Assembly: GCA_050331235.1 (NCBI GenBank)
Contig: JBHJHA010000035.1
Location: forward strand, 79,311-143,310
Source of the DNA: Leptolyngbyaceae cyanobacterium
GTDB lineage: Bacteria > Cyanobacteriota > Cyanobacteriia > Phormidesmidales > Phormidesmidaceae
DNA length: 64,000 nt
Direction of reading: 5' to 3'
Below are positions 30,672 to 59,872 of the stretch, piece by piece. A model generated the notes under the pieces. It saw nothing but the letters and a program-made list of their open reading frames with translations, had not been told where the DNA came from and did no database searches. Every line of letters begins with the position of its first letter. Positions within the stretch are counted from its first letter, which is position 1. The translations under genes and the position numbers were made by a program.

Positions 30672-30745
30672 GGGCACGTAGCTCAGTTGGATAGAGCATC
30701 AGATTCCGGTTCTGAGGGTCGGGGGTTCGAATCCCTCCGTGCTCG
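30672..30745 (+). tRNA. tRNA-Arg(CCG)
   Basis: Acceptor GGGCACG/CGTGCTC, D arm GCTCAGTTGGATAGAGC, anticodon arm TCAGA-TTCCGGT-TCTGA and T loop TTCGAAT. CCA is not encoded. Confidence 0.97.
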
Positions 30746-52614: not shown

Positions 52615-54159
52615 ATGACCATACCGTTCATACTAGAAGTCGCGATCGGCTTAGTGTTTATCTATCTCACGCTGAGTCTGCTCGCGAGCGAAGTTCAAGA
52701 AATTATCGGCACTCTTTTACAGTGGCGTGCAGAGCATTTAAAGCGATCCATCGAGGTGCTGATTGCCGCCAATGATAAAGACAGCAAAGAAGCCGCGGAA
52801 ACCTTAGCTAACCGCCTCTACGACACCCCGCTCATCCGCAGCTTAAATCAGGAAGCCACGGGTCCCATTGCCCACTTCTTTCGGTTGATCAATCAAGTCA
52901 TCGGTCAGGTTTACCGGACGATTACAAGGGCTCGCAACGTCTTTGGTAACAAAACCAGTGGCCCCTCCTATATTCCTGCCAAAACGTTTGCTCAAGCTCT
53001 ATTAGAAAGCGTTCAAGTTGAAGATTTGCGGGCAGTTTTATTGGAGAGTCGCTTAGGCCGGTTTATTCAAGAGAAACTAACGCTGCCGCTCAACCATATG
53101 GTCAATGATCTGAGGGCCAGCACCGCGAATGAGTTTCTGCTTAACACAGAGTTCCGTAATCTAGAAAGGTCGATTACCCAACTCATCGAGGACTTTCGGG
53201 AACAGCGGAGTACGCTATCGGAAACCCTCGATCGCTTAGTTGTTCGCTTAGACGAATTTGCCGCTGCCGCCCAGGCTGCGCTACCCGATAACCATCATCT
53301 GACTGAAACTTTTATGCGGCGGTTGGACTATCTCCGCCAAACCCTTGCCAGCACGACTTTAGATAAGTCTGCCATGATGAAAGCTATCCAACCGAGCCTG
53401 GCAGAGTTAGTTTCCGTTGTGGACTCTGATAGCTCAGTCTATCGAGAACTCAAGGAATTAGTGAGGCGCGATGGGGGCAAAGCTGAAAAAATTCTCACGA
53501 ATATAGAGAGCAATACTCTACCCGCCAGTCTCCAAGCAACATTAATCTCGCTAGCTGAAAAAGCTGGCAGTTCGTTGGCAGCTAAAGCCAGCGATACCGT
53601 TTTAGGAACGATGCAGAATCTAACCGAAGACTCTGTCAGCAACCTCAAAATTTACCTGTCTGATTTAGAGAGTGATGTCAAAGCTTTGGGCCTAGAGGTT
53701 GAGGCTTGGTTTAATCGCGGGATGGCTCGGGCCCAGGGCGTTTATAAGCGGAATGCTAAGGCTGTTGGATTGATGATTGGTATTGCGATCGCCATTTCCC
53801 TCAATGCCGACTCGCTGCATATCTTGGACAGCCTATCCCGCGATCCAGCGGTCCGCAATGCAATTACCCAAGCTGCAGAGCAAGTCGCTACAGACAATCC
53901 GGAAGTGATTGGCCAACTCGAAGAGGAGGTTGATCAAGTCCTGAGCGATCTACCCATTCCAATCGGATACAGTGAGGCCATTACCAGTAAACAGCAAGCT
54001 GCCCAAGATTCTTGGTTTATTCCCCTCATTCCGCGTCGGTTAGTTGGTTGGTTAATTACCGGCTTTGCCATCTCCATGGGCTCCAGTTTTTGGTTCAACT
54101 TGCTCAAGCGCGTGGTCAATGTCAAAAACTCTGGCAAAGAAGAGGGTACGAAGGATTAG
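52615..54159 (+). CDS. conserved hypothetical membrane protein
   Basis: N-terminal TM (EVAIGLVFIYLTLSLLASEVQE...LQWRA), a long helical soluble region, and C-terminal TMs with GWLITGFAISMGSSFWF. Confidence 0.85.
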   Translation: MTIPFILEVAIGLVFIYLTLSLLASEVQEIIGTLLQWRAEHLKRSIEVLIAANDKDSKEAAETLANRLYDTPLIRSLNQEATGPIAHFFRLINQVIGQVYRTITRARNVFGNKTSGPSYIPAKTFAQALLESVQVEDLRAVLLESRLGRFIQEKLTLPLNHMVNDLRASTANEFLLNTEFRNLERSITQLIEDFREQRSTLSETLDRLVVRLDEFAAAAQAALPDNHHLTETFMRRLDYLRQTLASTTLDKSAMMKAIQPSLAELVSVVDSDSSVYRELKELVRRDGGKAEKILTNIESNTLPASLQATLISLAEKAGSSLAAKASDTVLGTMQNLTEDSVSNLKIYLSDLESDVKALGLEVEAWFNRGMARAQGVYKRNAKAVGLMIGIAIAISLNADSLHILDSLSRDPAVRNAITQAAEQVATDNPEVIGQLEEEVDQVLSDLPIPIGYSEAITSKQQAAQDSWFIPLIPRRLVGWLITGFAISMGSSFWFNLLKRVVNVKNSGKEEGTKD

Positions 54160-54424
54160 CCACCCAGACTTCGGCCACTATCCCAGCAGCTTTCTCGCTT
54201 CATGATTAGGTCACCGCTTCATCAGTCTATAACTTCAAATAGGACGGCCTCTACGGTTCCTAAATTCGGCTGCCTTTCCTGGCTCAACTACCCAAAAATG
54301 CTATGCGGTTCTGCCTGCTAATCATCATGTTTACTACTGTATAGCGATAACCAGGATTGGCACTTTTGAAGGCATTAAAGAAAGTGTATTTTCAATCCAG
54401 TGTGAACACAAAAATTGAGGGAAT

Positions 54425-54440
54425 TGTAATAATAGAGACA
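54425..54440 (+). promoter_or_regulatory. putative NtcA-like box overlapping a -10-like element
   Basis: TGTA-ATAATAGA-GACA has one mismatch to TGTA-N8-TACA and contains TGnAATAAT. It ends about 10 nt upstream of the riboswitch. Confidence 0.5.
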
Positions 54441-54450
54441 GAACAGCTGA

Positions 54451-54540
54451 ACGTTCATCCTGTTGCTCTTTGCTCGACCTCAATCAACCCTAGCAGTAGT
54501 AATCAGGACGGAAGTAGGGTTAGGCCCCGAAGGAACGCGC
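54451..54540 (+). ncRNA. glutamine riboswitch (glnA RNA motif, type I)
   Basis: P1 CGTTC/GAACG, P2 TCCTG...CAGGA, junction CGGA, and E-loop AGTA...GAA enclosing P3 GGG-TTAGG-CCC, ending GAAGGAACGCGC. This is the glnA-motif architecture. Confidence 0.88.
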
Positions 54541-54575
54541 CCCCAATACATCTAACTCATAACTGGAGGCGAATC

Positions 54576-54701
54576 ATGTTAGACACTTCATTGATTCAAG
54601 GATTGGAAGTGATCGCTATCGTCAGTGTGATGACGACCGTTTTATCTCCCATTTTGTGCTGGGTGTTGACGCATCCTTTGCTCGAGAGTAAAGCGGGCTA
54701 A
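54576..54701 (+). CDS. 41-aa single-TM small protein downstream of the glutamine riboswitch
   Basis: GGAGG RBS 6 nt before the ATG; MLDTSLIQGLEVIAIVSVMTTVLSPILCWVLTHPLLESKAG*; followed by a terminator. Confidence 0.72.
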   Translation: MLDTSLIQGLEVIAIVSVMTTVLSPILCWVLTHPLLESKAG

Positions 54702-54714
54702 GCCGGAAAACGTC

Positions 54715-54754
54715 ACAGCCCGATGGTTCGCGCGATCCATCGGGCTGTATTTTT
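54715..54754 (+). terminator. rho-independent terminator
   Basis: ACAGCCCGATGG-N10-CCATCGGGCTGT followed by ATTTTT. Confidence 0.82.
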
Positions 54755-57361: not shown

Positions 57362-59872
57362 ATGGGTAAAGTTGTTGGTATTGACCTTGGGACAACCAAC
57401 TCAGTGGTCTCTGTTATGGAGGGTGGCAAGCCCATCGTCATCGCCAATGCTGAAGGCATGCGCACCACTCCTTCCGTGGTTGCCTTTAGCAAGGATGGCG
57501 AACGCCTGGTGGGTCAGATGGCCCGTCGACAAGCCGTGTTGAATCCTCAAAATACCTTTTACGGTGTCAAACGGTTCATGGGGCGCAAGTATGGGGAACT
57601 CACCCCCGATTCGAAGCGGGTGCCTTACACCATCCGCCGGGGCGACAACAATGAGGTGCGAATCCAATGTCCGCGTTTAGAGCGCGAGTTTGCCCCCGAA
57701 GAACTTTCCTCCATGATTTTGCGTAAGCTCGCTGATGAAGCCAGTCGCTATCTGGGGGAACCCGTGACCGGGGCGGTGATTACTGTGCCGGCCTACTTCA
57801 ACGACGCTCAGCGACAGGCCACCCGCAATGCTGGGCGTATTGCCGGGTTAGAGGTGCAGCGCATTCTCAACGAACCCACCGCGGCTGCCTTGGCCTATGG
57901 GCTGGAACAGCAATACAGCCAAACTGTGTTGGTATTTGACCTCGGGGGGGGCACCTTCGACGTCTCCATTCTAGATGTCGGCGATGGCGTGTTTGAAGTG
58001 CGGTCCACAGCCGGTGATACCCAGTTGGGTGGCACCAACTTTGATAAGAAGATTGTTGATTGGCTGGCCGATGAATTTCTAGAAGCGGAAGGTGTGGATC
58101 TCCGCCGCGATCGCCAGTCGCTTCAGCGCTTAACCGAAGCCGCCGAAAAAGCCAAGATTGAACTGTCCGGGGTCAACGTTTCAGATATCAACCTGCCTTT
58201 CATTACCGCGACGGCTGACGGTCCCAAACATTTAGAAACGTCGCTCTCGCGGTCACAGTTTGAGGGCTTGTGTGGTGATTTGATGAGTCGCCTGAGGGGA
58301 CCGCTAAAGCAAGCTCTGTCTGATGCTGGACTCACCCCGGATCAAATTGACGAGGTCGTGCTGGTGGGCGGTTCGAGTCGAATGCCGATGGTACATGATC
58401 TGGTGCGATCGCTCATTCGCCGGCCTCCCAATCAAAATGTCAATCCTGACGAAGTCGTGGCCGTCGGTGCGGCGATTCAAGCCGGCATTCTGACCCAAGA
58501 GGTGCAAGACATTCTCCTGTTAGATGTCACGCCGCTGTCACTGGGGTTGGAAACTATTGGTGGCGTCATGAAAAAGGTGATTCCGCGGAATACTACCATT
58601 CCCGTGCGGCGATCGGACATTTTTTCTACCTCAGAAAATAACCAAACGATGGTGGAAGTTCATGTCTTGCAGGGCGAGCGCGAAATGGCCACCGACAACA
58701 AAGATTTGGGCCGGTTCAAACTGATGGGGATTCCCCCTGCGCCGCGAGGAGTTCCCCAGGTGCAGGTGGCCTTTGACATTGACGCCAACGGCATCCTCCA
58801 GGTCTCCGCCATGGACCGGACCACTGGGCGCGAGCAAAGCTTGACCATTCAAGGGTCAGCTACCCTGAGCGAGGCCGAAGTCCAGCAGATGATCCGCGAC
58901 GCGGAGGAATATTCTGAGACTGATCGCCTCAAACGCGAACAAGTTGAAAAGCGCAATCGGGCCGAGGCTCTGACCTATCAGTCTGAGCGGATCCTGCGTG
59001 AAGTCGTGCTTGATTTTGGGATGCAGTTTGCCCGCGATCGCCGGCGACGGGTTGAGCGCCTCATTCAGGAGCTCCGCGAGTGCTTAGCCAATAATGATGA
59101 ACGTGGGATTGACATTACCCAAGCTGAACTGCAAGACGAAGTGTACGAGCTCAATCGGGAAGCCTACCTGTATGAGGACGACACTGAAGAAACCGACTTT
59201 TTGGGGCAAATCGGGGGGACGCTCAAGCGTACCTTTATGGGAGATGAGGATGACTTCAACCGTTACGAAGATAGCTGGTCCCGTCGCCCCGCTTGGGACG
59301 ATGACGCTTGGAATTATGATCGGCCCCGATTGACGGGAACGCCCCCCGCTAACGATTATTACAACGCGCCCCCGGCTCGCTATCAGCCGGACAGCTATGG
59401 TGCTGCCCCCCGTACCAATGCGCCCTATGGCGCTCCTCGTAATTACGCAGATCCCCGTAGTTCCGAGGGATATGGTGCGCCAGGCGACAACGGTATGAGC
59501 CCCGACAGGCCCCGCGACTATGGCAATGAACCGCCCCGCCCCAATGGTGGCTATGGGCAGCCCGGTCCAGGCTATGCCGGCGATCGCTACGCCCCTAATC
59601 AACCGCCTCGCTATCCCAATGAGCGACGACCTGAGGGTGATGCCTACCGCGCCCCTGATCCATGGGGAAATGGCGATGCCTATGGCAACCAGCGTCCTCC
59701 AGCGCCTGAAGCTCGGGACTGGAATCGACCCTCGACAGACGCCAATCGTCCGCTGCAAAACCGCCCCCCCCAAGACCCTCAAACGGGTCGCCGAAATGAC
59801 TATGATGCCCCCCGAAGAAGCGGTGGCAGCGGTTATGATGACGACTGGGGAGACGAAGACGAATGGTTTTAA
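57362..59872 (+). CDS. dnaK: Hsp70 chaperone, DnaK3-type, with a long low-complexity C-terminal tail
   Basis: [25 protein letters not shown] and NPDEVVA. It ends [11 protein letters not shown] and is followed by a dnaJ gene. Confidence 0.96.

Follow-up and report, generated by a model that had tools for sequence, protein, structure and literature searches.

A predicted glutamine-switched gene for a single-span membrane microprotein in a Leptolyngbyaceae cyanobacterium, possibly a brake on nitrogen uptake

Glutamine riboswitches are known to control the gene for IF17, the glutamine synthetase inactivating factor, and genes encoding IF17-like DUF4278 proteins. In the survey of Klähn et al. (2018), the aptamer precedes DUF4278 genes in 25 of 28 genomes; some aptamers precede open reading frames (ORFs) without a Pfam family, which the authors mention and leave undescribed, and their table gives Pleurocapsa sp. 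PCC 7327 two aptamers and one DUF4278 hit (PMC6212724). The closest known leader is that of gifB, the IF17 gene of Synechocystis sp. PCC 6803, where a type 1 riboswitch is combined with an NtcA-type promoter box, and where a helix that masks the Shine-Dalgarno site (anti-SD) begins at the C following stem P1. In the model proposed for gifB, glutamine binding melts the helix by recruiting its first C to a long-range pair (PMC6212724). IF7, IF17 and NirP1 are small NtcA-controlled inhibitors of nitrogen assimilation, and an NtcA box placed over the -10 element or the start site is the repressing arrangement (PMC11848123).

The locus described here belongs to a Leptolyngbyaceae cyanobacterium (assembly GCA_050331235.1, contig JBHJHA010000035.1, positions 79,311-143,310, forward strand); this 64,000-nt stretch is called the window, and its coordinates are used throughout. 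An earlier note on the same DNA had delineated a compact unit of five parts, namely an NtcA-like box, a riboswitch, a ribosome binding site, a 41-codon ORF and a terminator, and all five are found where it had placed them (Table 1). The leader resembles that of gifB in its riboswitch type, its promoter box and the point at which its anti-SD helix begins. It differs from gifB in its product, which lacks DUF4278, is hydrophobic and is predicted to span the membrane, and in an NtcA box that carries one mismatch.

Table 1. Features of the transcription unit, in window coordinates
Feature	Position	Strand	Basis or remark
NtcA-like box GTA-ATAATAGA-GAC, predicted repressor site	54426..54439	+	sequence
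Likely -10 element AATAAT	54428-54433	+	overlapped by NtcA-like box
Type 1 glutamine riboswitch aptamer (RF01739) with long P2 stem	54450..54541	+	cmscan, fold
Predicted expression platform, anti-SD hairpin	54538..54571	+	folding energy, likeness to relatives and to the gifB model
GGAGG ribosome site	54565-54569	+	6 nt 5' of the ATG
Gene for the 41-aa microprotein, with a single hydrophobic helix at about residues 10-32 and a predicted N-out/C-in topology	54576..54701	+	
Intrinsic-terminator-like hairpin, then ATTTTT	54715..54754	+	folding energy

The terminator described earlier as strong is indeed so by prediction: its stem (54715-54748) folds at -25.5 kcal/mol with a z-score of -6.16, none of 200 shuffled sequences is equally stable, and ATTTTT follows to 54754. 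A simple terminator scan of the window, with a loop limit of 8 nt, did not list it. Because both flanking genes, a 514-aa ORF and a gene for an FAD-dependent oxidoreductase, lie more than 400 nt from the unit, the latter is likely a separate transcript. A gene resembling the 514-aa ORF is the upstream neighbour at 7 of the 14 same-genus loci; the ORF itself (52615-54159) has no Pfam match above cut-off. Elsewhere in the window, an 836-aa ORF with a long low-complexity C-terminal tail (57362-59872) and the ORF after it are presumably DnaK-like and DnaJ-like, respectively, and a tRNA gene at 30672-30745, with anticodon CCG as read from the alignment, is the sole other Rfam match.

The aptamer scores 51.9 bits (E 1.7e-8) against RF01739 in an Rfam cmscan of the window, above the gathering cut-off of 35, which confirms the glnA-type riboswitch. 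The conserved core CGUUCA / CGGAAGUA / GAAGGAACGC and the three-way junction are present in the model alignment and the fold, the core columns are invariant across 20 leaders, and P1, P2 and P3 all form in the minimum-energy fold. Right after P1, the anti-SD segment CGCCCCCA (54538-54545) pairs with UGGAGGCG (54564-54571), covering GGAGG, in a predicted hairpin of -8.7 kcal/mol (z -2.9); loss of its first C (54538) is computed to cost about 1.8 kcal/mol. Most of the 27 leaders in which P1 is detected form a comparable hairpin, which other branches build from CGCCUC/GAGGCG; in five loci (L021, L025, L029, L053 and L054) it is weak or takes another form. This is the kind of hairpin proposed for gifB, and the RNA elements expected of gifB-like control are found in this unit. 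The opening of the switch is not reproduced by folding: the nearest-neighbour model keeps the ribosome site paired under ligand-like constraints, so the case for a glutamine switch comes from homology. By that homology, the leader very probably turns translation on when glutamine is high.

The promoter is less clear-cut. Positions 54425-54440 read TGTAATAATAGAGACA and contain GTA-N8-GAC, one mismatch from GTA-N8-TAC, overlapping TG-T-AATAAT. The AATAAT is conserved, its identity as a -10 element being predicted, and a sigma-70 scan of the window lists no promoter at the box. Some 10% of the AT-rich 45-nt segments of the host genome contain a box with at most one mismatch, and the argument for this one therefore lies in its position, 26 nt before P1 (offset -26), in register with the perfect boxes of L021, L026, L029, L031 and L035. 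Perfect GTA-N8-TAC boxes are found in 7 of the 27 family members with a detectable P1 (chance 0.9% each), six of them at offsets of -23 to -29, and 6 of the 25 members in which no P1 is detected have such a box within 200 nt, where chance would give 4.6% per 200 nt; these counts include close kin and so are not independent. Among the same-genus orthologues there is no perfect box in 14, and a single-mismatch box in only 4. NtcA control looks real for the protein family and weakened in the host's genus. The repression claimed in the earlier note thus stands for the family and only weakly for this copy, which we consider somewhat more apt to be NtcA-repressed than to be free of it.

The ORF itself bears clear marks of selection on a protein. 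Over codons 2-32 in 14 same-genus orthologues, dN/dS is 0.11 and pN/pS 0.23 (pooled pairwise values, with synonymous sites near saturation), and variable columns at codon positions 1, 2 and 3 number 21, 7 and 27 of 31. The proposed frame is free of stops in all 14 orthologues; the other five frames contain stops in 6-14 of them. The conserved, constrained gene expected from the first description is thus found, and the 41-codon ORF is almost certainly a real gene on this comparative evidence. That it yields no functional product, being a chance frame or the tail of the 114-aa frame noted earlier (54357-54701, open in the host genome and running through the riboswitch), is scarcely credible: the non-coding version conflicts with the dN/dS, the codon-position pattern and the existence of 97 clusters of relatives, and the longer product with an upstream frame that, in the other 13 orthologues, is shut after 7-55 open codons 5' of the ATG, against 75 open codons in the host genome.

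The 41-aa peptide has a best 19-residue hydropathy of 2.25, a hydrophobic 19-mer (1.96-2.83) is present in all 52 members examined, and AlphaFold2 predicts a single helix over residues 4-39 (mean pLDDT 84), in agreement with the one hydrophobic helix read from the sequence before. Lysine and arginine are absent ahead of the helix in 52 of 52 members, from which the topology is predicted, and net charge is near zero. The motif P-x-L-(C/L)-W-(V/I)-L-P-x-R recurs across 227 sequences, with the proline at about 100% and the tryptophan at 97%; the tail after the helix, of some 8-20 residues, is poorly conserved past Leu-Pro-x-Arg. The peptide has no Pfam match at E 1, PF14105 (DUF4278) included, and no NCBIfam or PDB match (best PDB E 2.6), with no similarity to any solved subunit. 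Thirty members searched against Pfam gave none either, save one stray DUF5917 at E 0.027. Both earlier characterizations, a membrane microprotein of no recognised family and a peptide unlike IF7 and IF17, agree with these searches. The ESM Atlas returned clusters of hypothetical proteins alone, at 0.80, which is chance level, and fused or longer forms numbered none among 7995 candidates, which is weak evidence. The microprotein belongs to an unnamed family of one-helix proteins of about 35-55 aa.

Three identities were considered for this family and set aside. Origin from, or mimicry of, an Amt helix was suggested by a 13-residue Mep2 match (E 3.9) and not borne out; hhalign against cyanobacterial Amt1 gives 0.3%, and the host's Amt ranks 748 of 1560 domain hits. 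The motif looks PsaI-like; hhalign against the host genome's PsaI gives only 0.6%. The peptide is not Norf4, whose N-terminus differs as judged by the primers in the paper that describes it (PMC5126843). Norf4 and HliR1, reported by Baumgartner et al. (2016), the former rising on nitrogen removal (PMC5126843), and Ncl1450, a 36-aa, low-carbon-induced protein from Synechocystis ribosome profiling with homologues in Pleurocapsa, Stanieria and Cyanothece (bioRxiv 10.64898/2025.12.20.695498), are similar to the family in size and in having one predicted helix (Norf4, HliR1/SliP4 and Ncl1450 have 31-37 aa). However, the family profile has no match in the genome of Synechocystis salina LEGE 00031 (best E 0.08), which contains the norf4 start; Ncl1450 might still be distantly related to the family.

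A search with the peptide finds matches in 28 of 41 genomes at E 1, and the family profile at E 0.001 matches 24 of 24 genomes of the host's taxonomic family and 3 of 16 others. Protein searches return 106 relatives at E 0.01, the named ones all "hypothetical" or "uncharacterized"; clustering at 50% identity gives 97 clusters, of 34-101 aa. Of 401 genomes sampled evenly across the phylum, 31 match at E 0.01, and 23 of these are counted (E 5e-7 or better, the host's own included); the eight weakest (E 1.2e-4 or worse), of which G141 alone was inspected, are excluded. Two large taxonomic families of the sample have no match in 46 and 26 genomes, respectively. Three rows (L033, L058 and L059) were dropped because they are not full ORFs of the protein family. 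Cultured strains with members include Leptolyngbya sp. PCC 6406, Halomicronema hongdechloris C2206, Cyanobacterium aponinum PCC 10605 and Leptolyngbya sp. O-77. No paper describing the family was found in the literature searched, mostly outside subscription journals.

The pairing of riboswitch and gene is recurrent and no accident of the host genome. That genome has five RF01739 matches, of which three front DUF4278 ORFs (the ORF behind one of its other riboswitches matches PF14105) and two front the microprotein family, namely the window copy and, at C20:3107, a paralogue of 55 aa. No riboswitch is found at the third paralogue (C51:6390). Across 41 genomes, 28 of 121 above-cut-off riboswitches front the family (27 of 103 in the 25 genomes of the host's taxonomic family), and 28 of the 62 family loci sit 34-62 nt behind an RF01739 match. 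These linked loci are spread over 20 genomes, all 14 of the host's genus included, so that the linkage looked for after the first description proves tight. Direct scans of loci added two linked cases that the stricter filter had missed (L025 and L023), and two linked cases belong to a distant taxonomic family (f30; L053 and L054).

The remaining 34 of the 62 loci have no RF01739 match in that search, and one paralogue group mostly lacks both the riboswitch and the NtcA box; the protein family is therefore not solely nitrogen-controlled. Four loci share an orthologous position downstream of a UspA-family gene: L026 has an intact riboswitch, L023 a lengthened one, and in L024 and L027 none is detected, while the NtcA-like box remains in L024, L026 and L027. 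Such a series indicates that the riboswitch can be lost or gained. In a tree of 52 members the riboswitch label needs at least three changes, and only 6 of 49 branches are well supported, too few to tell gain from loss. Separately, two units of a riboswitch and a 56-aa DUF4278 ORF stand in tandem about 300 nt apart (G000:C50:43729-44306; L001 and L004), and three riboswitch matches are found at the same spacing in G001:C12, G010:C360 and G011:C1.

Within the genus the gene occupies a stable chromosomal position; beyond it the gene's surroundings are not conserved, and uptake genes do not adjoin it with any regularity. Individual loci have features of their own. In L049 (665-1602), a UreG-like gene (PF02492) follows a member on the same strand after 162 nt, and a same-strand tRNA gene overlaps both this gap and the ORF start as called. 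The member in L034 has just 3' of it an inverted repeat of 75 nt that is nearly perfect (1392-1466), where matches to microRNA families are far below cut-off. In G011, about 8 kb separate the second riboswitch-linked paralogue (L135, G011:C1:7845000-7863000) from nirA-nrtP-narB; in G000 the two share a contig, about 41 kb apart, and in G001 they are far from each other.

If the unit works as gifB is proposed to, NtcA bound to the box over the -10 element would dampen transcription under nitrogen limitation, and the anti-SD hairpin would hide the ribosome site. On an ammonium upshift, NtcA would leave the promoter and glutamine would bind the aptamer, drawing the first C of the hairpin (54538) into a long-range pair, so that the hairpin would weaken and the peptide be made. 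By this analogy, the peptide is likely made when nitrogen is plentiful. What follows is drawn by analogy only: the peptide would insert with its C-terminus inside, and its near-invariant proline and tryptophan, followed by Leu-Pro-x-Arg at the inner membrane face, might dock on a transporter and lower its activity; the peptide would then do at the membrane what IF17 does to glutamine synthetase and NirP1 to nitrite reductase. Since IF7, IF17 and NirP1 are NtcA-controlled inhibitors of assimilation, a membrane peptide under like control would most simply brake uptake. It shares with IF7, NirP1 and PirA the character of a small nitrogen-control protein and likely the same on/off logic; those act by protein-protein contact and target soluble proteins, and no membrane-spanning member of the group was found in the text searched (PMC11848123). 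The parallel with sP36 of Methanosarcina mazei, a small protein that targets the ammonium transporter AmtB1 after an ammonium upshift, is one of function; by its description, sP36 differs in being archaeal, 61 aa long, cytoplasmic until the upshift and active together with GlnK1 (PMC10714827).

The explanation we tentatively favour is that this is a stand-alone, probably glutamine-switched gene for a predicted single-span protein, likely made under nitrogen-replete conditions and possibly braking nitrogen uptake, with Amt1 as the first candidate. That the peptide brakes some nitrogen uptake system is conceivable and falls somewhat short of probable; that Amt1 itself is the target is doubtful. 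The host genome encodes one amt, a nirA-nrtP-narB cluster and a UrtA-like gene. NrtP as an obligate target is disfavoured, being above cut-off in only 13 of the 22 family-positive genomes of the phylum sample and missing from G026, which has a riboswitch-linked family copy. UrtA is likewise set aside as an obligate target, with 31 of 36 carriers above cut-off and 33 at E 1e-60. All 36 of the carrier genomes tested have Amt, which leaves it as the only possible universal partner; co-occurrence does not point to it, however, because Amt is also present in 14 of 14 control genomes and the family is patchy. Counting against an uptake brake are the want of a steady link to uptake genes in the neighbourhoods, the lack of a family match in the S. 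salina genome and the control that PII already exerts over Amt1, NrtCD and UrtE in Synechocystis (PMC6603209).

It may be instead that the same regulation serves another membrane complex, in photosynthetic or respiratory electron transport or in carbon uptake, or a membrane protease, and rebalances carbon and nitrogen at high glutamine. In its favour, the riboswitch is missing from about half of the family loci, and in three related genomes (L044, L046 and L048) a member lies 81 nt behind a gene for a 75-aa protein with a C-terminal hydrophobic helix; this neighbour has no Pfam match at 1e-5, and we take it to be Psb34-like. The partners of SliP4 are electron-transport complexes. Single-helix small proteins of its kind exist in cyanobacteria (PMC11848123). 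However, the peptide has no likeness to solved PDB subunits, the hhalign value for PsaI is negligible, and both of the control signals found here are nitrogen signals. This reading is only a little less probable than the uptake brake.

A role within the glutamine synthetase control circuit, in which the peptide would tether DUF4278/IF17-like proteins or PII to the membrane or otherwise partner with them, is unlikely. The leader type is shared with DUF4278 genes (three of the five host riboswitches, against two for the microprotein family), and of 17 further loci examined, four have a paralogue that lacks the riboswitch and adjoins DUF4278-like genes of its own strand. It stands between two such genes in three near-identical genomes (L143:437-1045, L145 and L146), and just before one in L157. 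Yet these four loci amount to about two independent cases, a motif scan found a convincing DUF4278-like neighbour at none of the 52 earlier loci, and the inner tail is short and poorly conserved for such a partner. A type I toxin-like peptide that slows growth or depolarises the cell is most improbable: size and the single helix fit, the Synechocystis protein Ncl1450 has been so read (bioRxiv 10.64898/2025.12.20.695498) and a promoter-like site lies on the opposite strand at 54813-54786, but such sites are about as many as chance would give (2, with 1.7 expected), the peptide has no lysine or arginine before its helix and a net charge near zero, its chromosomal position is stable within the genus, and induction by glutamine would be a poor fit.

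The regulatory module of this unit is a known one, and the protein family it appears to control is undescribed in the literature searched, where no glutamine-fed membrane branch of cyanobacterial nitrogen control was found either. Such a branch is apparently missing from the genus Synechocystis, judging by the one genome searched. In its strongest form, which we think rather unlikely, the family would be a second major output of the riboswitch that closes uptake by direct binding to Amt1, and would provide a PII-independent glutamine feedback on ammonium entry. More generally, that about a quarter of the switches in one taxonomic family front a microprotein unrelated to IF17 points to a membrane-located arm of glutamine feedback.
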